Shown here: positions 5,084 through 20,389 of the stretch, piece by piece
Layout of the letters: each line of letters starts with the position of its first letter
Numbering within the stretch: position 1 is the first letter of the stretch
IMG/VR virus record: IMGVR_UViG_3300042922_000620
Coordinates: 1-63,802 of that record
Direction: 5' to 3' (one strand)
DNA: 63,802 nucleotides
Origin: a virus
Lineage: Duplodnaviria; Caudoviricetes
Notes under the pieces: generated by a model
Seen by the model: the letters and a program-made list of their open reading frames with translations, nothing else
Database searches by the model: none
What the model was told of the DNA's origin: nothing
Position numbers and translations under genes: made by a program

Positions 5084-5611
5084 GGTGGGTCGGCAAGCGC
5101 TCACTCAAGGGCGGTCGCCTCGAGATCGGCCGAGTCTGGCTGACCTGGGGCGGATGGAGAGTCGCCTGGCCGCTGCGTGTGCAGTTCCGAATCGGTCGAG
5201 CGCGGGTCTTCTTCGTCGGCCCGATCGCCGTCTTCGTCCAAGGGGGTGCGCGATGAAGGTCCAGCAGATCCGCGACGGCATCCGCATCCGCCGCCGCATG
5301 TTCACGCCGGAGTCCGCTCACCTGAACGTGGACTACCCGGAGTCGGCGCGGCTCGCGCTGTCGGAGGCCATGCATCGCAAGATCGTGCGCAACACCGGGC
5401 CCGCGAAGATGGCGCGGACGCGCGGACCTCGCCTGCGCCGGATGACGGTGAGAGTGCCATGGCTCTGATAGGACTGGCGCTCTCACCGGGCGACGCGGCC
5501 GCACTGCTCACCGCCATCGAGTTCTCTGAGCCGTTCCTCAACGAGGCAGAGGTCGAGCGCGTGGGACGCATCCGCGCAGCACTGCGCGCCGAGATCAACG
5601 ACGCGACGTGA
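5080..5611 (+). CDS. Three small coupled ORFs (5080-5256, 5253-5468, 5459-5611), hypothetical
   Basis: Consecutive overlapping ORFs. Confidence 0.55.
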
Positions 5612-6084
5612 AGCAGCCGGACAATGTCACGTCGATCGCGCGTCTCCGCGGCAAGGTCGACGAGACGGGACAGACCGTATCCATCGACGCGCCTCGCAGG
5701 CGTAAGCGCAAGAAGGGATGGAGGGATCGCGTGGGACTGATCGACCTGGGCCTCATGTCGAGGCTCGACCTGAACGGCTCCGAGTGGCGTGTGCTCTCGA
5801 CCGTCATGGCGTGCGTCCCCGAGAAGGGCGGATCGGAGGCATTCTGCACGCTGCAGGAGATCGCCGACCGCCACGAGATCCCGCTCTCGAGCGTGTCACG
5901 GGCGATGAAGTCGCTGCGCGATCGCCGCATCATCATGAAGAACGACCGCCGCATCGGCCGCTGGCACGTCAACGCCTGGCTGATGTACAACGGCGACTTC
6001 GACTCGTGGAACGTCGAAGCCGAGCAAGACCCCGAGCCGATCTGGTCGCGGGGTGTGGATGCCATGACAGGAGAGATCAAGTGA
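5608..6084 (+). CDS. HTH DNA-binding protein, RepL/MarR-like
   Basis: TLQEIADRHEIPLSSVSRAMKSL HTH followed by WHVNAWLMYNGD. Confidence 0.7.
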   Translation: MKQPDNVTSIARLRGKVDETGQTVSIDAPRRRKRKKGWRDRVGLIDLGLMSRLDLNGSEWRVLSTVMACVPEKGGSEAFCTLQEIADRHEIPLSSVSRAMKSLRDRRIIMKNDRRIGRWHVNAWLMYNGDFDSWNVEAEQDPEPIWSRGVDAMTGEIK

Positions 6085-6542
6085 CCACGTATGCCAGTAA
6101 GACCGACGTCTCGAGCGACCGCAGTCGCAACGAGATCGAGACCACCCTGCGGCGCTACGGCGCCGACGAGTTCGGCTACATGAGCGGCCGCGACCGTGCC
6201 CAGGTGGCGTTCTCGTACAAGAACCTCCGGGTGCGCTTCGTCCTGCCGATGCCCGACCCGCAGGACCGGGAGTTCACCCACCACAGCCGCGGCGTGCGTA
6301 CGGCGTCGGCGCGGGATGCCGCGTACGAGCAGGCGGTGCGGCAGAAGTGGCGCGCGCTCGCCCTCGTGGTGAAGGCGAAGTTGGAGGCGGTCGAGTCCGG
6401 CATCTCCACCTTCGAGGAGGAGTTCTTCGCGCACCTGGTGCTGCCCGGCGGCCAGACGGTGTTCGAGTCCGTCGCTGGCCAGGTGGACAGCATGATCGCC
6501 AGCGGCCGCCCGGGCTCGCTCATGATCGAGGCGGCGTCATGA
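6081..6542 (+). CDS. Conserved phage hypothetical protein
   Basis: YASKTDVSSDRSRNEIE...LVVKAKLEAVESGISTFEEEF, a familiar phage family. Confidence 0.75.
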   Translation: MTTYASKTDVSSDRSRNEIETTLRRYGADEFGYMSGRDRAQVAFSYKNLRVRFVLPMPDPQDREFTHHSRGVRTASARDAAYEQAVRQKWRALALVVKAKLEAVESGISTFEEEFFAHLVLPGGQTVFESVAGQVDSMIASGRPGSLMIEAAS

Positions 6543-6853
6543 CCGACTTCGAGCCAGACCTCACAGTCGCCGCCGACGGCAGTGTGAGTGCCAACACGCC
6601 TGCTGGCGCGAAGATCCTGGGTGAGCAATTCGAGGAGATCACTGTGCCGCGCGGTGGCATCGCATTCGCTGGTGGATGGTGCGCACCGTCGAGCGACATC
6701 TATAACCTGCTCGACACGAAGCCGCTGACGAAGAAGCAGTTGCAGAAGCGGCTGGACGAGACGCAGCGTGCTCTCACGCGCGAGCGAGAGAAGACCCGCC
6801 GCCTGACTCGCAAGGTGGACCGCCTGCTCAAGATCATCCGGAGGATGGCATGA
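6539..6853 (+). CDS. Small coiled-coil protein with major-capsid-like motifs
   Basis: EITVPRGGIAFAGGWCAPSSDIYNL then basic coiled coil. Confidence 0.75.
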   Translation: MTDFEPDLTVAADGSVSANTPAGAKILGEQFEEITVPRGGIAFAGGWCAPSSDIYNLLDTKPLTKKQLQKRLDETQRALTREREKTRRLTRKVDRLLKIIRRMA

Positions 6854-7281
6854 CCGACCGCAATGGCTGGACGCCGCCGGGCGCGTGGATCGACGAGACG
6901 CACGGGCTGATCCTGCCGAAGGTCCCGAAGTCCATGGCGCCGTTCGACTTCCGTTCGGCGCTCATCTCCGACTCGCCCGTGACGGATGCGATCACGATCG
7001 AGATCGACCGGCTCGTGCGGGACACGATCAGTCAGGAGCGCGACGCTATGGAGTCGCTGTGCTGGCAGGCCCTCAGTGACCCCGGTCGCCGCGGCATCGT
7101 CGTCATCGAACGTCCGCTCGAGTGGGACTTCGGGGACGAGTCGGCGAACACCTACACCGCCAGCGTGACGCAGCACGTCGAGATGCGCCTCGACCATCGT
7201 GTGCCCAGCATGACCATCTACCGATTCCCGAGCCGCGAGGCGTACGACGAGTGGGTGGAGCGGGGGTGCCCGCATGACTGA
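6850..7281 (+). CDS. Hypothetical protein
   Basis: ATGA-coupled 143-aa ORF. Confidence 0.7.
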   Translation: MTDRNGWTPPGAWIDETHGLILPKVPKSMAPFDFRSALISDSPVTDAITIEIDRLVRDTISQERDAMESLCWQALSDPGRRGIVVIERPLEWDFGDESANTYTASVTQHVEMRLDHRVPSMTIYRFPSREAYDEWVERGCPHD

Positions 7282-7436
7282 GGGCGGCAAGGTCTGGGTC
7301 ATCTCATGCCGGTGCGGATGGTCGCGCATGGTCCCGCGTTCCACCCCCACGGCGCGCCGTCTGCAGATCCTCAAGAACCACCGGGCCGAGGCCCACGGCG
7401 ATACCCTTCCCCCTGACGACCAACGAGAGGACTGAC

Positions 7437-7784
7437 ATGGACCTGGCATACGAAAAGGGCGGCCTGCGGGTGTACGAGCACTCCGACGGCGTGACGATCA
7501 GCACGGTCTACGCGGAGCGCCGCCACCACCGAATCCTGGCGCCGATCGACTACTTCGAGTTGGTCGAGGCTCCGTACCACGCGGCGCTGCAGATCCTCGT
7601 CGACGCCGACATCACCGCGGCCGGCGGCGAGCCCTTCGGTGACTACGAGTTCGAGATGCCCGAGGACCTGGTCAGCGCCACAGTCGACCCCAGCGGCGAC
7701 TACCAGTGGGTCGTCGTCTCCCGCTCATACTGGCCCGCCCCGCCGACCGAGCCCGAGCCAGAGGAGCCTGAGGGCGGTGTCTGA
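7437..7784 (+). CDS. Acidic hypothetical protein
   Basis: GAGAGGA RBS, 115 aa. Confidence 0.7.
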   Translation: MDLAYEKGGLRVYEHSDGVTISTVYAERRHHRILAPIDYFELVEAPYHAALQILVDADITAAGGEPFGDYEFEMPEDLVSATVDPSGDYQWVVVSRSYWPAPPTEPEPEEPEGGV

Positions 7785-8172
7785 GATCACCGAGGTCTCG
7801 GGCCCCATGCTCGGGGTCTACCGCCTGCAGGCGATGTACTTCTGGCAGTGGGACGGGAAGAAGGTCTCGGCGCAGCGGATCAACGCCGAGATCGTCACCA
7901 TGGCAGAGGCGCATGGAGCATCCGTGGTCAGTTCGCACTACGAGGCCCGCCTCTCTGCCCTGTCGCCGGAACTCCTCATGACCATCGAGCGGCACGACGG
8001 CACGGCGGCTTGGCACATCGAGGTCGCTCGAGGCGAGTGGCTCGCGATCTGGACCGAGGGCGCGCGGATCATCGCGATCGACCAGTACGACGAGCGGGAC
8101 GGGGCTGACCGCTTCACGCGGGTCGCGCCCGTGCACGTGCTCCGTCCCAATGTTGGGACGCTCGAGTCGTAG
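7777..8172 (+). CDS. Hypothetical protein
   Basis: GTG start overlapping previous gene; ends across palindrome 8144. Confidence 0.65.
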   Translation: MSEITEVSGPMLGVYRLQAMYFWQWDGKKVSAQRINAEIVTMAEAHGASVVSSHYEARLSALSPELLMTIERHDGTAAWHIEVARGEWLAIWTEGARIIAIDQYDERDGADRFTRVAPVHVLRPNVGTLES

Positions 8173-9124: not shown

Positions 9125-9485
9125 GGGACCCAAGATCGACCCGCACGACGTCGTCAAGGCCGGGATCGCCGCCCTGCCAGCGAAATCCGTCGGCGACGCG
9201 CGCGATGTGATCGCCGTGGACGTCGATTTCCGCCGGCCGACGTACGGAATGGTCATCGAGGCCGCCAAAGCGCGCCGTCTGAGCGTCCCGGCGTACATCC
9301 GGCGCGCGGTGTACGCCTTCGCGGCGCACGATCTCGAGATTCCGCTGCAGGATGCCCTCGATCGAGACCCGCGGGTGACCCGCGACACTGGATACAGCCT
9401 GCAGGACCCCACCGGGACGCTGTTTGGGCACTGGGAGATCGCCAGGCTCGTCGGCGAGGAGGTGCCGGATGAGCCTGTCGCTTGA
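9111..9485 (+). CDS. Ribbon-helix-helix-like protein
   Basis: VDVDFRRPTYGMVIEAAKARRLSVPAYIRRAV. Confidence 0.6.
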   Translation: MRSRKGPKIDPHDVVKAGIAALPAKSVGDARDVIAVDVDFRRPTYGMVIEAAKARRLSVPAYIRRAVYAFAAHDLEIPLQDALDRDPRVTRDTGYSLQDPTGTLFGHWEIARLVGEEVPDEPVA

Positions 9486-10956
9486 TCTGCCCTCCAACGA
9501 CGGCGAACTCGAGGAGTACATCCGGAAACTGAGCCCGTCGGCCAAGAAGGACCTCGCCGCGCGTCTGGATGCACGCATGAAGGCGACCAAGCAGGTCTGG
9601 TTCTGCGGCGACCGGCGCTGTGATGGTGAACCCCACGGTCGATTCCCGTACAAGCACGCGCGCGGCTCGAAGCGGGAGGACGGTCGCGGCTCGCAGTACC
9701 CGCCGCTCGGGATCGACTGGCTGGTCTGGCTTATGCTCGCCGGCCGTGGTGCTGGGAAGTCCGCGACGGGGTCGGGCTACTCCTCCACCATCGTCAAGAA
9801 GATCCCGTCGATCGCCCTCATCGGGCCGACGATGCCCGCTGTGCGCCGATTCATGATCGAGGGTGACTCGGGTCTCATCAAGGCGTGCGAGCGCCGTGGA
9901 GAGCCGGGCAACTACGAGCCGTCGAAGCAGCGCTTCACGTTCCACAACGGCGCCGTGGCCGAACTGTTCAGCGCCGAGGAGCCCGACCGTCTCCGAGGCG
10001 GCAACTTCGGATTCGTCTGGGCTGACGAGAACGCCCACTGGGCCGACGCGGCGTACGTGTGGAAGCAGATGCTGCTGACGCTGCGCGTCGGTCTGCGGCC
10101 GCACGTGTTCGCGTCGACGACGCCGATCCCGTCGGACTACATGAAGGAACTCCGCAGCAAGCCGACCACCCGCGTGGTGGCTGGGTCGACCTACGACAAT
10201 CGGTCGAACCTCTCGCCGGTCTACTTCCAGACCCTCATGGACGAGTTCGAGGGCACGTACCTCGGACGCCAGGAGATCTACGGCGAGATCATCGACGACC
10301 GCCAGGGCGCGCTGTGGACCAGCCTGCAATTCCAGGAGGAGGACTTCTACTTCACCGACGAGGTCATCCCCTCCCTGGACCGCGTGCTCGTGGGGATCGA
10401 CCCGGCGGGCTCGAACAACAAGCGCTCGGACGAAACGGGCATCATCGTCGGCGGCAAGCGCGGCGAGATCCTCCACGCCCTGGATGACTTCACCGGCAAG
10501 TTCTCTCCCGCCGGCTGGGCCCGAGCGTCGATCAACGCCTACGAGAAGTACAGCGCCGACGCCATCGTCGTCGAGCGCAACTACGGCGGCGACATGGTGC
10601 GCACCGTCCTCAAGGCCGAAGGCTTCGACGGGCGCATCATCGAAGCGCAGGCGACCGAGTCCAAGCGGGTGCGCGCCGAGCCGATCGCAGCCAAGTATGA
10701 GCAGCACAAGGTGCGCCACCGCCGCGGTGGGATGCTAGCCAAACTCGAGTCCGAGCAGGTCTCGTGGATCCCCGGCGAGGGGAAGTCACCGAACCGGCTG
10801 GACGCCTGGGTCTGGGTAGCGACAGCGCTGACCAAGCGCGGCGGCCCGATGCAGATGCCCAACGCCCGTGGCCTCAGCACGTCCATCGGGCCACAGCCGT
10901 ACCAGGGGCCCGGATCGCGGGCATCCCGCAAGCGAGCACAGAGGGGAATCCGATGA
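9469..10956 (+). CDS. terL: Terminase large subunit
   Basis: Walker A GRGAGKS, LRG..WADE Walker B, STTP coupling motif, GIDP...DETG and PNRLDA nuclease motifs. Confidence 0.95.
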   Translation: MSLSLDLPSNDGELEEYIRKLSPSAKKDLAARLDARMKATKQVWFCGDRRCDGEPHGRFPYKHARGSKREDGRGSQYPPLGIDWLVWLMLAGRGAGKSATGSGYSSTIVKKIPSIALIGPTMPAVRRFMIEGDSGLIKACERRGEPGNYEPSKQRFTFHNGAVAELFSAEEPDRLRGGNFGFVWADENAHWADAAYVWKQMLLTLRVGLRPHVFASTTPIPSDYMKELRSKPTTRVVAGSTYDNRSNLSPVYFQTLMDEFEGTYLGRQEIYGEIIDDRQGALWTSLQFQEEDFYFTDEVIPSLDRVLVGIDPAGSNNKRSDETGIIVGGKRGEILHALDDFTGKFSPAGWARASINAYEKYSADAIVVERNYGGDMVRTVLKAEGFDGRIIEAQATESKRVRAEPIAAKYEQHKVRHRRGGMLAKLESEQVSWIPGEGKSPNRLDAWVWVATALTKRGGPMQMPNARGLSTSIGPQPYQGPGSRASRKRAQRGIR

Positions 10957-12042: not shown

Positions 12043-13893
12043 ATGCCGAGGGGTGGTCCGGTCTTCCGCAGCGAGGTGGTCAAGGCCCCCAAGGCGCCCG
12101 GCGCCCTCACCGCAGCAGCCAAGGTCTATCAGAATGGACCCGGCGCGCAGTCGATCCGAAAGCAGGGCCGACGCGCCCGCTCGATCGAGTATCAGAACGA
12201 CCTCTGGGACTTCTACGACACGGTGCCGGAGTTCCGGTTCGCTTGCTCGTGGGTGGGCAGTCTGCTGTCCAAGGTGCGGCTGAACGTCACCTACAAGGGC
12301 AAGCCCACCACCAATCAGGCGGCGCTCGACGCTCTCGCATCACTGTTCGGCGGACCCGAGGGCCAGGCCGAGATGATGCGGCTGCTCGGCATCAACTTCA
12401 CGGTGTGCGGCGAGGCGTTCGTCGTCGGCAAGCCGGACCCCTCATCCCACCAGGACGACTGGCAGGTGATCGCGTCGGTCGAGGTGTCGAACAACGGCAC
12501 GACGCTGACCATCGAGCAAGAGCCCATCGACGACGAGACGCTGGCGATCCGCCTGTGGCGCGTCCACCCTCGCCGCTCGTCCGAAGCCGACTCGCCCTCG
12601 CGCGCGCTCATGCCGGTCCTGGCCGAGATCGTGATGCTGACCCAGGTCGTGAACGCCCAGGGCTCGTCCCGCCTCACATCCTCCGGCATCCTCTGGATCC
12701 CGTCCGAGATCGAGATGCCGGCACTCCCCGTCACTGAGGAGAGCATCGACCCCGACGCGGAGATCTCGTCGATCCAGGAGGCGGGCAACGCCGCCGATGC
12801 CGTGACGACGCGACTCGTGAAGATCGCATCCATCGCCATCGGGGACCGCTCGTCGGCCGCCGCGAACGTGCCGTTCGTCATCGCCGCCCCGGGCGAGCAC
12901 CTCGAGAAGATCCAGAAGACCGAGTTCTGGTCCGGCTTCGACGAGCACGCCAAGACTCTCCGCGACGAGGCGATCCGCCGCGTCGGCGTCGGCATGGACA
13001 TGCCGCCCGAGGTGCTCACCGGCACCGGCGAGATCAACCACTGGGGCGCGTGGTCGGTCGAGGAGGCGGCGATCAAGTCGCACACCGAGCCCCTCATCGA
13101 CATCATCGTCAACTCGCTGTCCACCGGCTACCTCCACGCATGGCTCGAGTCCGAGGGTGTCGAGGACTGGGAGAACTACGCGTTCGACGCCGACACCACG
13201 GAACTGCGCCTGCGCCCCAACCGCTCGAAGGAAGCGATGGAACTGTGGGACCGCGGCGCGATCTCCATCGAGACGCTGCTGCGCGAGAACGGCTTCGACC
13301 CCGACACCGACCGCCCCGACGAGGCGGAGCGCATCATGTTCTTCCTCATGAAGGTGGCCGAGAAGACCTCCGCCACACCGCAGCAACTGGCGGCCGCACT
13401 GCAGCAACTCGGCGTGAAGGGCATCCCGGCGGGCGAGGACGCGCGCGGGGCCATCGAGCCGCGGCGCTCGCTCGAGGATCATCCGTCGCAGGACATCCCC
13501 GTCCAGGAGGAGTCCGAGGCGGGCAACCCGCGCGGGCTGAACGCCTCGGGCCAGCCGGTCATCATCGACCCGCTCGTGCTGGCCTGCGAGGCGCACGTGC
13601 ACCGCGCTCTCGAGCGCGCCGGCAACCGGCTCAAGAACAGGGTCGACGGCCGCGTGGGTCGAGTCGCCGCGGATCTCTACCTCACGGCACCACAGATGGA
13701 CTTCAAGGAGTGCGAGGCGCTGCTCGAGGACGCCTGGGGCATGTTGGACCGCTTCGAGTACCCGGGCATCTCGACCGAGCGGCTGCGGGAGGCGCTGAAC
13801 GAGTACACCCTGTTCCTGCTGCGCACCCAGAAGCCCATGTCGCGCGCCACCCTCGCCCGGCATCTGATGCTGGAGTTGGCGGATGCAGCCTGA
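12043..13893 (+). CDS. Portal protein
   Basis: 616 aa after terminase; WDFYDTVPEFRF, GMDMPPEVLTG..NHW motifs of actinophage portals. Confidence 0.9.
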   Translation: MPRGGPVFRSEVVKAPKAPGALTAAAKVYQNGPGAQSIRKQGRRARSIEYQNDLWDFYDTVPEFRFACSWVGSLLSKVRLNVTYKGKPTTNQAALDALASLFGGPEGQAEMMRLLGINFTVCGEAFVVGKPDPSSHQDDWQVIASVEVSNNGTTLTIEQEPIDDETLAIRLWRVHPRRSSEADSPSRALMPVLAEIVMLTQVVNAQGSSRLTSSGILWIPSEIEMPALPVTEESIDPDAEISSIQEAGNAADAVTTRLVKIASIAIGDRSSAAANVPFVIAAPGEHLEKIQKTEFWSGFDEHAKTLRDEAIRRVGVGMDMPPEVLTGTGEINHWGAWSVEEAAIKSHTEPLIDIIVNSLSTGYLHAWLESEGVEDWENYAFDADTTELRLRPNRSKEAMELWDRGAISIETLLRENGFDPDTDRPDEAERIMFFLMKVAEKTSATPQQLAAALQQLGVKGIPAGEDARGAIEPRRSLEDHPSQDIPVQEESEAGNPRGLNASGQPVIIDPLVLACEAHVHRALERAGNRLKNRVDGRVGRVAADLYLTAPQMDFKECEALLEDAWGMLDRFEYPGISTERLREALNEYTLFLLRTQKPMSRATLARHLMLELADAA

Positions 13894-16800
13894 GGCGTTC
13901 GCAGCGGCACGGCGGGAGCAGTTGCTCCTCGCCGACGAGAGGCTGGGTCCTGCCGTCGAGTTGGGGCTCATGCGCTACCTCAACGGCGAGGATGGCTGGG
14001 CGAGCATCATCCGCGACACGGCGGGCCAGATCTGGCTCGAGCACTACGTGGCCGAGTCGCCGGGGCGCGACTACGACCGTGCGCTCGCACGCTTCCGGGA
14101 GGCCGTGGGTGAGGCGCTCTCGCGCACCTCGCAGCCGACCGGCGATGTGACGCAGGCGCAGGTAGGCCGCATCGTCCGCTGGCTGTCCACCTACAGCGTG
14201 AACGCCGGGACGATCTCCGGCGCGTACGGGCGCGGCATCCGGTTCAAGCGCTGGACGACCATGAACGACGCCGACGTGCGCGAGATCCACGAGCACCTCG
14301 ACGGGCAGATCCGCCCCATCGGCGGGACCTTCGACGTCGCCGGGCACCGCCTGCCCTACCCTGCGGTGCCCGTGGGTCCGCCGGAGGTGTGGATCGAGTG
14401 CCGCTGCGTGGCGCAGCCGGCATCCCGCGAGGGCGAGACGATGAGCGCGAACACGTTCACCATCGGCCCGGAGTACGAGATCGACGAGGAGCACGAGATC
14501 GTGAGCAACAACATTACTGCGGCCGGTGACCTGGCCAACCCTGACGGGACGCCGTACACCGGCGCGCTCGTGGTGCTCGTGCCGGCCGACTCGGACCCTG
14601 TCGTGGCGGCGTCGAGCGAGCCCGCCCACGTGACGACGGTGTGGTTCGGCGAACTAGCCGACCTCCCTGTGGATGTCGAAGAACTCGAGCAGGCGGTGCG
14701 CCTCTACGCCCAGGGTCTCGACGGCCCTGTCGTAGTTCCCGTCCGCGAGCGCGGCACGCTTGGCGACGACGACGCAGACGTCGTGTTCCTCGAGCCGACA
14801 GATTCGCTGCTGGCGCTGCGCGACGGTCTGCTGGTGAATGAGCCGATCAAGACGGCGTATGACGCCGCGGAGCAGTTCCCCGAGTGGACCCCGCACGTCA
14901 CGCTCGGCTATCCCGAGCGGCCCGCGAAGGCCGAGTACGATGCGACAGAGGTGACGTTCGACCGGATCAGCCTGTGGCTGGGCGGCGAGCACTACGACTA
15001 CCCGATGGGAGGGACCGCCGTGACTGCGGATGCTGCGATCGCAGACGAGGATGTCGTCGCCGAGGACATCCCCATGGACGAGCCCGAAGACGACGAGGAC
15101 CTCATCACCGAGATCCCCATCCACGGCGTGCTCGCGCCCGAGGGGATCCTGACCGGAGATGGCCGCGGCTTCCGCGAGGGCGCGCTGTCCACGCGGCCGC
15201 TACCCGTGCCGTACCGATACGAGTACGTGTCGTCACACGGCGGCAATCAGACTTCCGAGGTGGCCACCGTCGGCCGCATCGACCAGGCGTGGAAGCACGA
15301 GGAGACGGGCATGTGGCGCTTCATCGGCGCGATTGTGCTCGACAAGCCGTACGCCGCGGCGGCGATCTCCTCGATCATCGACGGCACCGGCTCGGGCGTC
15401 TCCATCGACGCCGACGACATGGTCCAGGACTTCTCCGACATCCTCGACGAGGAGGGCAACTACATCGAGAAGCCCTTCGACCTGGCCGAGGTGGGCAAGC
15501 AGGAGGAGATGTGGTTCTCGCAGGCGCGCGTGGCGGGCCTGACCCAGGTGCCGATCCCCGCCTTCCACCAGGCGTACGTCGCCCTGGGTGACGAGTTCGT
15601 GGAGGACATGACCGAGGAGCAGGCGCTCGCAGCGTCCGCCGCTCTCGAGGACTGCGGCTGCGACGGCGAGGTGGCGCTGGCTGCCGCCGGCGTGGACTTC
15701 CGCGACGTCTCGACGAAGGAGCGCAAGCGCCTGGCCGACGAGGGCAACGCGATGCCCGACGGCTCATACCCGATCGCCAATGAGGAGGACCTCCGCAACG
15801 CGATCCAGGCTATCGGTCGGGCCAAGGACCCGGATGCCGTCAAGGCGCACATCAAGAAGCGGGCGCGTGCACTCGGCAAGGAAGACCTGATCCCCGAGGG
15901 CTGGTCGCTCGCGCGCGGCGGGTTCGTCACCGCCGGCACCTTCGCTCTTGCTGGCGAGACCGGCATCCCCGAGTACATCGTCCCGCTCACAGTGGCGGGC
16001 GACAACCAGGAACTGCTCGCCCGGATCGCACGAGGCGACGTGTCGTTCGCACCCGGGACCAAGGACGGCCCGGGGTGGATCACCCACCCGGTCGCCACCT
16101 CGCGCATCCGCCGCTACTGGGTGCGCGGCACCGGCGCCGGCAAGATCGGCTGGGGCCGCGGCGGGGACTTCTATCGCTGCCGGAACCAACTGCGCAAGTA
16201 TGTCGCCAACCCCGACTGGCTGGACGGTCTGTGCGCAAACATGCACAAGGAGGCGACCGGCATCTGGCCCGGACAGCACGACGCCCACTCGATCCGCCAG
16301 GGCCTGGTAGCCGCCGGTACCATCACCGCCGAGCCCGCGCCGCTCGCCCGCCTGGTCGCGAGCGCGTCGCGCAAGTTCCCCGCCGCCGCGTTCGCCGAGC
16401 CCGAGGACCTGGGCCGCGCGTACGCGATGCGCATCGACCGCGAGACACGCCGGATCTGGGGCTTCGCCGCAGACTGGACCACCTGCCACATCGGCATCAC
16501 CGGCATGTGCCAGGAGCCGCCGAAGTCGCACTCGAACTACTCGTACTTCCGCAAGGGCCTGGTCGAGACCGACGCCGGCGAGCAGTCGGTGGGCCTGCTG
16601 ACGATGGGCATCGGTCACGCCGGGGAACGCGTCTCGGCTGCTGCCGCGACGGCGCACTACGACCGCACCGAGGCCGTCAAGGCGTATATCAACATCGGCG
16701 AGAACGCCTATGGGATCTGGTACGCCGGAGTGCTCGCACCCTGGGTCACCGACGACGACATCGACGCGATGCTCGCCATCCGGCGCGTCTCTGGCGACTG

Positions 16801-17128
16801 GCGTAACTGGTCGGGCCGGTACGGCGACCTCGAGATGGTGGGCCTGGTGGTCGTCAACACTGAGGGCTTCCAACTCGCGGCATCCGGCGCGCTCGACGGC
16901 ATGGTCGAAGGCGTACAGACGGCGGCGATCGGCATCGGATCCGTCGACGTCAAGGACGACGAGCCGGTGACGTCGAAAGACGTGGGCGAGACGCACGAGC
17001 AGTTCGTGCAGCGCCTGGCGGTCGAGGTGGCACGAGTCACCGCGTTCAAGGCTCGCGAGCAGGCCGCTCGTGAGCGCATCCACGCGCTGCGCGTCGCCGA
17101 CGCGCGCGCACGACTCGAGAGGATCTGA
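13883..17128 (+). CDS. MuF-like / capsid maturation protease multidomain fusion
   Basis: KRWTTMNDADVREIH...IECRC (MuF); two HVT motifs (2H); EGILTGDGR...VGRID..GVSID (protease-like); SGDWR C-terminal domain. Confidence 0.85.
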   Translation: MQPEAFAAARREQLLLADERLGPAVELGLMRYLNGEDGWASIIRDTAGQIWLEHYVAESPGRDYDRALARFREAVGEALSRTSQPTGDVTQAQVGRIVRWLSTYSVNAGTISGAYGRGIRFKRWTTMNDADVREIHEHLDGQIRPIGGTFDVAGHRLPYPAVPVGPPEVWIECRCVAQPASREGETMSANTFTIGPEYEIDEEHEIVSNNITAAGDLANPDGTPYTGALVVLVPADSDPVVAASSEPAHVTTVWFGELADLPVDVEELEQAVRLYAQGLDGPVVVPVRERGTLGDDDADVVFLEPTDSLLALRDGLLVNEPIKTAYDAAEQFPEWTPHVTLGYPERPAKAEYDATEVTFDRISLWLGGEHYDYPMGGTAVTADAAIADEDVVAEDIPMDEPEDDEDLITEIPIHGVLAPEGILTGDGRGFREGALSTRPLPVPYRYEYVSSHGGNQTSEVATVGRIDQAWKHEETGMWRFIGAIVLDKPYAAAAISSIIDGTGSGVSIDADDMVQDFSDILDEEGNYIEKPFDLAEVGKQEEMWFSQARVAGLTQVPIPAFHQAYVALGDEFVEDMTEEQALAASAALEDCGCDGEVALAAAGVDFRDVSTKERKRLADEGNAMPDGSYPIANEEDLRNAIQAIGRAKDPDAVKAHIKKRARALGKEDLIPEGWSLARGGFVTAGTFALAGETGIPEYIVPLTVAGDNQELLARIARGDVSFAPGTKDGPGWITHPVATSRIRRYWVRGTGAGKIGWGRGGDFYRCRNQLRKYVANPDWLDGLCANMHKEATGIWPGQHDAHSIRQGLVAAGTITAEPAPLARLVASASRKFPAAAFAEPEDLGRAYAMRIDRETRRIWGFAADWTTCHIGITGMCQEPPKSHSNYSYFRKGLVETDAGEQSVGLLTMGIGHAGERVSAAAATAHYDRTEAVKAYINIGENAYGIWYAGVLAPWVTDDDIDAMLAIRRVSGDWRNWSGRYGDLEMVGLVVVNTEGFQLAASGALDGMVEGVQTAAIGIGSVDVKDDEPVTSKDVGETHEQFVQRLAVEVARVTAFKAREQAARERIHALRVADARARLERI

Positions 17129-17772: not shown

Positions 17773-19584
17773 ATGGCCGACAAGGCTCCCAAGAAGTTCG
17801 AGGTTCCGGTCAACGACGCGGGCGAGATCACGCTTGCCGAAGACCTCACCCTCGAGTCGATCTCCGAGACGCGTGACGCCGCGAAGGCGTACCTCAAGGA
17901 GGTCGACATCGCCAACGCCGAGGAACTCGACGCGGCAACCCTCGAGCACATCGAGCAGGTGCTCTCGTACGTGGACGCCCTGGACGCCCGCGACGGCGAG
18001 ATCACCGCCGAGCAGGAGGCGCTCGACGCCCGCCTGACCGCAGCCCGTGACCGCGCGGCCGCACTCAACAAGACCGCCGAGGAGTCCGCCGAGGGCGAAG
18101 GCGGCGAGGGTGAGGGCGAAGGTGACGGAGAGGGTGAGTCCGTCGAGGGCGAGCCCGCCGAGCAGGAGGCCGTCCTGGCATCCGGCCGTCGGCGCCCGAC
18201 CGTCGCCCGGGCCGCCCGCAAGGCGCCCGAGGTGATCCTCCCCAAGGACGAGAAGGCGGGTCGCAAGACCGTCGTGCTCGCTGCGGCGAACGTCCCGGAC
18301 TTCAACCAGAACCAGGAGATCGACTCGCTCGACACCCTGGCCGACGCCTTCCTCTCGCTCACCGGTGCGTTCGGTGCTCGCGGTGTCGACCACTTCGGTC
18401 GCGGCGCGGCGAAGACCACGCACCGTGAACTGACGAAGAACGCGGCGCGCAAGGGCGTGGCCCGCATCAAGCGCGACGAGAACCAGTTCTCCGTCGACCG
18501 CGACATGTCGGCGGCCGAGCAGATGCAGATCATCCTCGACGCCTCGGACGAGGTGAAGCGCTTCGGCTCGTTCGGTGGCCTCACCGCCGCCGGTGGCTGG
18601 TGCGCCCCCTCGGAGACGATCTACGACCTGTTCTCGTACCACACGGGCGCGGGCACGTTCGACATCGCCGAGGTCACGGCACGCCGTGGTGGCATCTCGT
18701 TCACCAAGGGCCCGGACTTCATGACGATCTTCGCCGACCCCGACGCGGGCTGGTCGATGACCGAGGCGCAGGCCGAGGCCGGCACCTTCACGAAGCCCTG
18801 CTTCGCGCTCGAGTGCCCCCCGTTCGAGGAGGTCCGCCTGGACGCGATCGGCTTCTGCGCCACGGCGCCGCTGCTGACCGAGGCCGGCTACCCGGAACTG
18901 GTCCGCATGGTGCTGTCGATGCTGGCCGCTGGTCACGAGCGTCGCAAGAGCGCCGCGACCATCGCGCGCATCTCCACCATGATCGGAGCGGCCACCGTGT
19001 TCGCGCCGGTCGGGGCAGCGGGCAGCCAGTCCGGCTACGCCGACACCCTCGCCGCGCTCGAACTGGACGCCAACCGCATCCGGCAGACGCTGGCGATGGA
19101 CCCCAACGCCACGGTCGAGGCGGTCTTCCCGTACTGGGCCTACGGCGTGTTCCGCACGGAACTGTCGCGCCGCCTGGGTCTGGACAACCCGTTCCGCATC
19201 ACGAACTCGGACATCGACTCGCACTTCGCCCTCCGCGGCATCCGTGCGCAGTTCGTGTACGACTACCAGATGCTCAGCACGGGCGCGGCTGGCACCGCCG
19301 GTGGCACCGCGGCATGGACGGCGTGGCCGACCACGCTCGAGTACATGATCTGGCCCGCCGGTGCGTTCACCCGCCTGGTGAACGACGTCATCAACCTCGA
19401 CGCGGTCTACGACCACGACCTGCTCACGCAGAACGAGTACACGGCGGCGTTCATGGAGGAGGGCTTCGCGGTCGCCAACACGCGCGGCTTCGGCCTCAAG
19501 CGCACCGTGGCCCTGAACCCCGAGGGCTCCTCGGGCTTCCCGGCCATCGGCGCTGGCGCAGACGTCACCTTCGCCACGGTCTGA
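17773..19584 (+). CDS. Major capsid (hexamer) protein with N-terminal scaffold-like region
   Basis: Acidic coiled-coil N-terminus, LTAAGGWCAPSETIYD, NEYTAAFMEEG. Confidence 0.9.
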   Translation: MADKAPKKFEVPVNDAGEITLAEDLTLESISETRDAAKAYLKEVDIANAEELDAATLEHIEQVLSYVDALDARDGEITAEQEALDARLTAARDRAAALNKTAEESAEGEGGEGEGEGDGEGESVEGEPAEQEAVLASGRRRPTVARAARKAPEVILPKDEKAGRKTVVLAAANVPDFNQNQEIDSLDTLADAFLSLTGAFGARGVDHFGRGAAKTTHRELTKNAARKGVARIKRDENQFSVDRDMSAAEQMQIILDASDEVKRFGSFGGLTAAGGWCAPSETIYDLFSYHTGAGTFDIAEVTARRGGISFTKGPDFMTIFADPDAGWSMTEAQAEAGTFTKPCFALECPPFEEVRLDAIGFCATAPLLTEAGYPELVRMVLSMLAAGHERRKSAATIARISTMIGAATVFAPVGAAGSQSGYADTLAALELDANRIRQTLAMDPNATVEAVFPYWAYGVFRTELSRRLGLDNPFRITNSDIDSHFALRGIRAQFVYDYQMLSTGAAGTAGGTAAWTAWPTTLEYMIWPAGAFTRLVNDVINLDAVYDHDLLTQNEYTAAFMEEGFAVANTRGFGLKRTVALNPEGSSGFPAIGAGADVTFATV

Positions 19585-19648: not shown

Positions 19649-20389
19649 ATGGCCATCCTGGTTCAGGCCCCGCCCCGCACGCCCCGCGAGGGCGGGATCA
19701 AGTCCGTCGCGAGTCCCTTCATCACCGTCCCCCGGCTCGGACTGCCGGAGGGCGATCTCGTCTGGGAGGACTCCACCTGCGGGTTCACCGACGAGACCTG
19801 GGTCGACTGCGTCCGCCCGCTGGACGCCGAACTCAAGACCGGCGCTGGCGTCACCCAGTACGAGGTCCAGGTCCCCGCGTTCGCCCGCTACAAGGGCGTC
19901 TCATGCTTCATCGGCGGTGACGGTGTAGGCCCGTCGTTCCAGGAGCAGGCAGAGTCTGCCCTGGCCGCCGGTGAGGATCGTCCGATCGAGGCCGCACTGT
20001 GGGCCTGGGCGGCTCTCGCGCCGACACCTGGCGCCGCGGCGACCATCGCCGAGGCCATCGCCGCCGCCGAGGATTACGCCGACACGAACTACGTCGGCCG
20101 CCCCATCCTGCTGATCTCCCGGGAGGACGCGGAACTCGCGTACACTGCCGGCGCACTGGACTTCGTGAACGGGAACCTGGTCACGGGGAACAAGACCCCG
20201 GTGCTCGCCTCGGGAGAGATCCCGTCGGGCTCCATCGCTGTTGTCGGCGGCATCGCCGTCTACGTCACCGACGTCGTAGCCAAGGCCGCGGCCGAGTACG
20301 AGGACAACATCATCCTGGCTGTCGCGGAGCGCAAGTATGCCATCGGCATCGACTGCGCCTTCCGCTACGTCGTCACCGTCACGCCGTAA
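19649..20389 (+). CDS. Major capsid pentamer protein
   Basis: Follows hexamer gene; NLVTGNKTPV, NIILAVAER..DC motifs. Confidence 0.75.
   Translation: MAILVQAPPRTPREGGIKSVASPFITVPRLGLPEGDLVWEDSTCGFTDETWVDCVRPLDAELKTGAGVTQYEVQVPAFARYKGVSCFIGGDGVGPSFQEQAESALAAGEDRPIEAALWAWAALAPTPGAAATIAEAIAAAEDYADTNYVGRPILLISREDAELAYTAGALDFVNGNLVTGNKTPVLASGEIPSGSIAVVGGIAVYVTDVVAKAAAEYEDNIILAVAERKYAIGIDCAFRYVVTVTP

Follow-up and report, generated by a model that had tools for sequence, protein, structure and literature searches.

The internal proteins of phage T4 carry a capsid-targeting sequence, and C-terminal tails load the proteases of HK97-type phages into proheads; in both systems small basic proteins or tails enter the procapsid via a short peptide. 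A short stretch of the major capsid protein can also act alone, as seen with the capsid-derived triggers of abortive infection, namely the Gol peptide with Lit and the capsid protein sensed by CapRel-SJ46. We report here on P0001, a protein of 104 amino acids encoded by the plus strand of the complete IMG/VR virus record IMGVR_UViG_3300042922_000620, which represents an uncultured soil phage. This whole stretch of 63,802 nucleotides (63.8 kilobases (kb), 67% G+C) is referred to as the window. Sequence comparison shows that the core of P0001 copies, in circularly permuted form, two neighboring pieces of P0002, the HK97-fold major capsid protein of the same phage. In contrast to the T4 internal proteins the putative tag of P0001 copies the capsid itself; Gol/Lit and CapRel-SJ46 differ in that they concern host-sensed parts of the capsid protein and not separate phage genes.

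With regard to function, the closest analogue in print appears to be CpmB of SaPI1. In the published account (PMC5644958) CpmB is small, helical and probably oligomeric, and is a competitor of the 80alpha scaffold at a capsid site beside the N-arm. Both CpmB and P0001 would carry a peptide copied from an assembly interface; the tail of the 80alpha scaffold is termed a “helix-and-hook” in the same account, and the C-terminus of P0001 is likewise an amphipathic helix, the tip of which is hydrophobic and basic (…LLKIIRRMA), as judged by eye only. CpmB copies the tail of the scaffold and is satellite-encoded, whereas P0001 would copy the capsid's own arm and is phage-encoded, and no sequence relation between the two proteins was found. 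Neither a protein family of the kind described below nor the string GGWCAP was found in the literature, most subscription journals being outside the search.

Capsid segments in P0001

The two capsid segments are called motif A and motif B in the order of their occurrence in P0002, and a hidden Markov model (HMM) of each was built from the respective segment of 75 capsids. The gene and its parts are the following:

6539..6853, + strand: small accessory gene encoding P0001, 104 amino acids
6539..6634, + strand: N-terminal acidic segment, residues 1-32, isoelectric point (pI) 4.1, predicted to be disordered (predicted local distance difference test, pLDDT, 47-52)
6632-6709, + strand: copies of motifs B and A, EEITVPRGGIAF-AGGWCAPSSDIYNL, residues 32-57
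6635..6667, + strand: copy of motif B, EITVPRGGIAF, residues 33-43, corresponding to the capsid's first β-hairpin; 10.3 bits, independent E-value (iE) 7.8e-4
6668..6712, + strand: copy of motif A, AGGWCAPSSDIYNLL, residues 44-58, corresponding to the capsid N-arm; 24.8 bits, iE 1.6e-8
6713..6850, + strand: KPLTKKQL linker and basic amphipathic helix, residues 59-104, pI 11.7

P0002 carries AGGWCAPSETIYDLF (18589-18633) and, after 12 residues, EVTARRGGISF (18670-18702), and the conserved capsid segments AAGGWCAPSE and PEVTARRGGIxF are both present in P0001 with their order swapped. If P0001 is compared to P0002 by BLASTP, residues 39-58 align with capsid residues 268-287 (13/20 identical, E 5e-8) and residues 33-46 with 300-313 (8/14 identical, E 0.017). 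In 20,000 shuffles of P0001 the score of motif A was never reached, that of motif B was reached once, and both together were never reached. Between P0001 and the capsid, 11 out of 15 residues of motif A are identical, 5 of these 11 being written with a different codon, and 32 out of 45 nucleotides match; for motif B, 7 out of 11 residues and 24 out of 33 nucleotides match. A first-pass annotation of this DNA had described two capsid motifs in reversed order, directly joined in the open reading frame (ORF) at 6539 and with diverged codons, and this description is confirmed by BLASTP, the HMMs, the shuffles and the codon comparison. Its suggestion that retention at the protein level points to selection likewise stands, since the motifs are retained family-wide, which argues for selection, and the codons have diverged.

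The best BLASTP segment is collinear because the capsid contains GGLTA just 5′ of motif A, so that RGGIAF-AGGW of P0001 is paired with GGLTA-AGGW of P0002. That the permutation is real, and not a mis-aligned GGLTA pre-sequence, is shown by relatives with the same order of motifs. In P0008, GLLDVPEVTARRGGIQFTGG is followed directly by GWRAPS; its B piece reaches 44.8 bits on the motif B HMM and fits the capsid consensus across 20 residues, running straight into A.

P0001 matches phrog_777 at E 9.6e-7 over its residues 18-64 only, and NCBIfam NF033847 at E 6.9e-5 (22.2 bits, cut-off 75) with residues 31-61 on profile positions 225-255; it is not a full-length member of the capsid family (phrog_777 / NF033847, MCP_Sipho). 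The core is homologous to residues ~268-310 of these capsids, with W, P and RGG kept. The differences are that only about 26 out of the 104 residues are capsid-like, that an A or P domain is lacking, that the pieces are swapped, and that the invariant Cys of the capsids is dispensable in the small proteins.

AlphaFold2 (15 rows with the order B-A) predicts a single confident helix for P0001 (residues 65-103, pLDDT >90), the remainder being of low confidence. The HK97 fold with its A and P domains and spine helix is absent from the model, 104 amino acids being too short for it. The core (pLDDT 47-59) is predicted to be disordered alone and adjoins the confident helix, an arrangement that would be typical of a peptide folding on its partner. 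Residues 59-104 contain 17 Lys and Arg versus 6 Asp and Glu, and in the best heptad register of the helix 8 out of 12 a/d positions are hydrophobic. The basic coiled coil named in the first-pass annotation is thus also what the model predicts, with a plausible heptad pattern. Pfam holds no family for P0001. All ESM Atlas neighbors score <0.9; among those assigned to a Pfam family the nearest resemble bZIP or coiled-coil proteins (0.76-0.77) and serve as leads only.

The place of the copied segments in the capsid protein is given by these features:

17773..19584, + strand: major capsid protein P0002, 603 amino acids; phrog_777 at E 2.7e-121, NF033847 at E 3.5e-134
17773..18567, + strand: scaffold (delta) domain, capsid residues 1-265, assigned by position; long helix at 54-104
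18589..18633, + strand: capsid motif A, residues 273-287, in the segment 269-286 (pLDDT <50); N-arm equivalent
18670..18702, + strand: capsid motif B, residues 300-310, predicted β-hairpin with strands E299-303 and E308-310

Capsids of the P0002 type are annotated as “major capsid hexamer protein” and occur in 851 isolate records (Mycobacterium, Gordonia, Microbacterium and others); the closest isolate capsid is that of Microbacterium phage Kelcole with 50% identity. No relative of P0002 was found in the PDB by sequence. The AlphaFold2 model of P0002 (pLDDT 81) has the HK97 fold according to Foldseek and VIA-align (e.g. 8fqk_D at Z 14.7). VIA-align places residues 76..383 of HK97 Prohead I on model residues 184..581, and model residues 285-290 on residues 124-128 of HK97 gp5. 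On the basis of this alignment residues 1 to ~265 form the delta domain, motif A the flexible N-arm past it, and motif B the β-hairpin that comes next. In HK97 the N-arm joins the scaffold to the shell, is flexible and invisible in Prohead I, and fills the scaffold's former place under the capsomer once the scaffold is removed, as reported (PMC10275583). Both motifs are among the most conserved columns of the capsid, with G275, W276, C277 and P279 in motif A and R305 and G306 in motif B invariant in the 75 capsids. The delta domain also contains an acidic stretch rich in Glu and Gly (residues 107-140, window positions 18091-18192; pLDDT <50), the charge of which is opposite to that of the P0001 tail.

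A family of small proteins in both motif orders

An alignment of P0001 with two relatives from the Joint Genome Institute (JGI), called A1, was used as a profile and searched against 1.84 billion cluster representatives at E ≤0.001. The search returned 30 proteins: P0001, 26 further small proteins (76-329 amino acids), two capsids (P0030, P0031) and one protein of 2052 amino acids that matches in 6 stretches (P0011). P0001 itself matches the family profile at E 9.6e-53 and the family HMM at E 2.9e-34. The 26 further representatives, which share at most 50% mutual identity, keep the P0001-like architecture: motif A and/or B comes first, a linker of KPLTKK type follows, and the C-terminus is a basic helix, as is also found in P0001. 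Linker and basic helix are common to the alignments A2, A5 and A6 and to nearly all members, and K61, P62, L63, T64, K65, K66 and L68 are invariant (alignments A1 and A4). The motifs are conserved among the homologues, motif B being found at iE <0.1 in 27 out of 30 and motif A in 28 out of 30.

Twenty out of 20 members looked up had no NCBI source and were named “hypothetical protein” at most. None of the models in PHROG, Pfam or NCBIfam is specific to these members, and 19 out of 25 match only positions ~250-300 of phrog_777. These small proteins with capsid motifs and a basic coiled coil make up an undescribed and unnamed family.

If 30 small proteins are scored with the capsid-derived HMMs for A and B, they fall into the following classes of motif order:

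B-A, both motifs at iE <0.01: 13 proteins, P0001 included
B-A with a weaker B: 2 proteins
A-B, both motifs at iE <0.01: 7 proteins
A-B with a degenerate A: 4 proteins
A only: 3 proteins
B only: 1 protein

The profile of the A-B class is collinear with capsid residues ~260-321 apart from one loop deletion of 11 residues (hhalign 98.7%, E 1.6e-16, 49 columns), and the B-A class aligns to the capsid over motif A (hhalign probability 96.9%, E 1.6e-10). Within the family W47 is invariant, G46 and P50 are near-invariant and RGG is kept. The Cys that is invariant in the capsids is replaced in several small proteins (GGWRAPS, GAWRRP, AGWNAL). This pattern, in which W, P and RGG are kept and the Cys is lost, fits a role in binding over one in chemistry.

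A comparison of the parts of P0001 with the other members shows it to be a mosaic. For the first 29 residues the nearest members are P0016 and P0010, both of the order A-B (local scores 92 and 90; self 145); its core is closest to the B-A members P0004, P0003 and P0007, and its tail to P0013, P0005, P0022 and P0015. P0001 accordingly combines flanks nearest to A-B members with a core nearest to B-A members, and the core behaves as one unit in either order. With an antiparallel hairpin, B would end beside the start of A, so that direct joining of the two should be sterically simple. Some longer members (P0004, P0008, P0010, P0013, P0018) contain a Cys/Trp module, …HDAPCxLSxPxxW…CxC…, which is inserted after the N-terminus and ahead of the core; this module is absent from P0001.

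Genomic setting and exchange of the slot

The ORF at 6539-6853 is a real, optional gene that heads the virion-gene arm. Its ATG overlaps the stop codon of the upstream gene (ATGA, 6539-6542), at its other end the stop codon shares bases with the start codon of the next gene (6850-6853), and its G+C content at the three codon positions (GC1/2/3 = 0.62/0.47/0.80) matches the coding pattern of the genome. Within the gene GC3 is 0.69 for the capsid-like core (6632-6709) and 0.89 for its own tail; the neighboring genes and the capsid gene have values of 0.92-0.95. A longer, GTG-started frame (6347-6853) was considered as the gene and rejected; its first part overlaps 6081-6542, which has a GC3 of 0.95 in its own frame. 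The genes referred to in the following are:

6081..6542, + strand: upstream neighbor, 153 amino acids, phrog_17260 (E 1.3e-55), function unknown, GC3 0.95
6850..7281, + strand: downstream neighbor, 143 amino acids, no family; its homologue adjoins the small gene in the relative G003
13883..17128, + strand: MuF-like / 2H-phosphoesterase-like / head-maturation-protease fusion, 1081 amino acids; phrog_859, phrog_18402, PF04233 and PF13563, the two Pfam matches being below the Pfam cut-off

After the P0001 gene the plus-strand arm contains the terminase (9424-10956), portal, MuF/protease fusion, capsid, tail and lysis genes. The small gene lies about 2.9 kb upstream of the terminase gene and shares its strand with the whole virion module; RecE/RecT and the replication genes form the minus-strand (early) arm. 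P0001 had been labeled “non-structural” in the first-pass annotation. Since its gene belongs to a same-strand block with terminase, portal, protease and capsid, we do not regard this label as established. One of the neighbors of the gene resembles winged-helix or MarR proteins, with a match that does not reach the Pfam cut-off.

The fusion protein contains a Mu-F-like head-morphogenesis part, a 2′,5′-RNA-ligase/2H-like part at residues 244-352 (PF13563 reaches 26.9 bits, its cut-off being 27) and, at residues about 825-1078, a head-maturation-protease part. In 53 capsid loci (L060-L139 and the window) the ORF of the protease fusion ends nearly everywhere in a basic amphipathic helix (…ARARLERI, …LRSKIKE). 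Directly after the capsid gene an ORF of 246 amino acids (19649-20389; phrog_779, function unknown) begins with …PREGGIKSV…, which recalls motif B without motif A (by eye only). A separate “pentamer” protein is sometimes annotated in isolates with such a capsid; the gene of Kelcole at that place is annotated as hypothetical.

The family HMM detects the small gene in 3 out of 32 related IMG/VR genomes (G020, G002, G003), each of them with the order A-B, on the strand of the capsid gene and ~7-12 kb upstream of it. G003 is the nearest IMG/VR relative, the mature part of its capsid being 82% identical to that of the window, and its A-B gene adjoins homologues of the window genes 5608-6084, 6850-7281 and 7274-7435. 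A-B and B-A thus occur at one slot in close relatives. On a capsid tree of 32 rows (the window and 31 out of the 32 loci; L137 was left out, having no capsid ORF by the pattern used) at least 3 changes are required to explain the four carriers, three of which fall within one 4-row clade. A weaker fourth match is an ORF of 101 amino acids in a further genome (G016:C1 ~2443-2748 = L153:644-949, - strand) with motif A (…LFAAAGGWCTPSEVV…) near the N-terminus; it has an acidic, unrelated tail without the basic coiled coil and adjoins a gene of helix-turn-helix type. This ORF suggests that motif A is joined to different partners. An ORF of 919 amino acids upstream of the capsid gene (L130:5030-7786 in G029, the same in G030) shows a marginal match to motif A (E 0.001 / 0.008), which is probably due to chance.

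Contigs of public sequencing runs were compared at ≥80% likeness, gaps in cover being weak evidence. In run X3 one contig keeps the entire stretch 5600-7794 with 63 differences. In run X4, a soil metagenome, a contig matches up to 6542 and is unlike the window thereafter, cover being resumed at 6865. Run X6 covers the upstream gene and the tail (6704 onward), with 6556-6703 not covered. Two variants of 6518-6733 are present within a single run (X2), one showing 1 difference and the other 26. No RNA run was listed among the sequencing runs that hold the sequence. The slot 6542-6865 looks like a hot spot of exchange.

Further family members were found neither in IMG/VR (searched with P0001, A1 or P0022), nor in JGI metagenome contigs (A4, P0013), nor in GTDB genomes (A4), and a DNA pattern for KPLTKK[QE]L gave 53 loci in IMG/VR with no family member by HMM. 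In tblastn searches of isolate phages the capsid gene of Microbacterium phage SM23 was all that P0001 matched, and P0022 gave no match; P0019 matched in 531 records and P0023 in 747, with one place per record. One listed match is annotated as tape measure (Nocardia phage NTR1) and lies at the same place as the match of the capsid query.

Proposed role and competing explanations

We tentatively propose, as a possibility that falls short of being probable, that P0001 docks in trans at the place of the N-arm and hairpin, and thereby tunes procapsid assembly or maturation or enters the procapsid. The core would represent a trans-acting docking peptide which occupies the place of the capsid's own N-arm/hairpin on capsid subunits, under the capsomer, where N-arm and scaffold lie in HK97-type procapsids. 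Alternatively it could dock to another assembly partner that recognizes the N-arm segment, such as the maturation protease, and the protease fusion at 13883-17128 is a candidate partner of P0001. The basic helix might oligomerize and point into the procapsid, towards the DNA or towards the acidic part of the delta domain. As a net effect procapsid assembly or maturation would be tuned, or P0001 would be carried in as a basic internal protein. Binding, the identity of the partner and the downstream effects are what we infer here. We favor docking because of the capsid origin of the core, the conservation of the copied segment, its position in the N-arm, the order-independence of the core and the position of the gene, which in 4 out of 4 genomes with context seen lies shortly before the virion genes and in their orientation.

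A wider and somewhat more doubtful idea is that N-arm and first hairpin form a portable, order-independent docking tag, the mini-proteins being its free-standing carriers. Unrelated cargo could then be plugged into the scaffold/N-arm site or whatever reads that segment, and two cargoes would be at hand, the basic coiled coil of P0001 and the different acidic tail of the G016 ORF. The exchange of A-B and B-A at one slot would represent a natural permuted interface peptide that is functional both ways.

Several observations weigh against the docking proposal. The small gene is dispensable, being absent from 29 out of the 32 related IMG/VR genomes, 100%-complete ones included, and also from Microbacterium phage Kelcole. 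A second, non-capsid match in isolates was not found among the matches listed (30 + 30 rows, all under the capsid gene). No clear covariation between the motifs of the small protein and those of the cognate capsid was seen in 4 pairs, a comparison of little power because the capsid motifs hardly vary. The cleavage point of the capsid is placed by inference from the HK97 alignment, and “cleav” occurs nowhere in the text of the Rosebush paper (PMC7150772). A phage-made copy of an assembly interface could equally harm the phage's own assembly. Finally, the family HMM finds nothing on the protease fusion (E 9.5). A C-terminal tag shared with this fusion had been considered; the tails are alike in character only (by eye), and with this E-value the likeness was rejected as evidence.

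Other explanations have to be weighed against the same facts. P0001 could be a decoy or blocker for a host sensor or chaperone that reads the nascent N-arm/hairpin of the capsid, so that capsid synthesis would go unnoticed. To our knowledge no sensor is known for the P0002-type capsid family, which counts against it. Few parts vary as little as the copied segment in a capsid found in so many isolate records, which would make it a good sensor target, and it is predicted to be flexible and exposed before assembly; the published account of HigC with lambda gpV describes a sensor of short aromatic patterns in phage structural proteins (10.1101/2024.02.24.581848). The patchy gene, whose slot holds another sequence in a near relative, would also be typical of counter-defense genes. 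A faithful copy of a trigger, however, would be expected to set off the sensor and not to block it, the gene lies outside the early minus-strand arm, and the conserved basic coiled coil is left unexplained. PADLOC gave no family above noise for P0001 or its neighbors, and the analogy to CapRel and Lit drawn in the first-pass annotation is, with no defense-related family matched, not supported as written. We consider such a decoy unlikely. An interference factor, i.e. a dominant-negative copy of N-arm and hairpin that poisons or mis-sizes the capsids of co-infecting relatives, is in our estimate distinctly unlikely. The interface is conserved family-wide, so one mimic could affect many competitors, the distribution on the capsid tree is patchy and accessory-like, and a satellite precedent exists in CpmB, which competes for a capsid site and alters capsid size (PMC5644958). 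The carrier's own capsid, however, has the same motifs, so that self-poisoning must somehow be avoided, the gene sits with late genes, and no integrase or repressor was found among the window products tested and therefore no prophage state is evident from which others would be excluded.

Two further explanations deny the capsid-like stretch a function of its own. According to one of them P0001 is a nucleic-acid-binding or regulatory coiled-coil protein and the stretch a leftover linker, in agreement with the basic helix as the only confidently folded part, the bZIP- or coiled-coil-like leads from the ESM Atlas and the winged-helix or MarR-like neighbor. We rate this as very unlikely: within the family conservation is strongest in the capsid-like residues (W47, G46, P50, RGG), both orders of the core are retained, the core moves as a whole between flanks of different kinds, and the G016 ORF joins motif A to an unrelated tail. 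According to the other, the gene is debris: a capsid gene would have been duplicated, and a decaying piece of it would be open by chance. The GC3 of the motif part, which is lower than the 0.89-0.95 of neighboring genes, could be taken as a hint in this direction; 26 further representatives with the same architecture, synonymous divergence at 5 of the 11 identical residues, start and stop codons coupled to both neighbors and a relative's contig that keeps the whole stretch (run X3, record 9) make it scarcely credible.

If the core of P0001 does dock at the place of the capsid arm, it would represent a class of phage self-mimic, of which we found none in print, that puts an assembly interface to a second use in trans. 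The A-B and B-A pairs would then offer a natural experiment on the tolerance of an interface peptide towards circular permutation, and a short peptide might be at hand for loading cargo into, or perturbing, the capsids of hundreds of Mycobacterium, Gordonia and Microbacterium phages. Should the decoy explanation hold instead, it would point to a host sensor of a highly conserved capsid segment. For annotation the family carries a warning in any case, as debris is not the only explanation for short capsid-like matches in small ORFs of phages.

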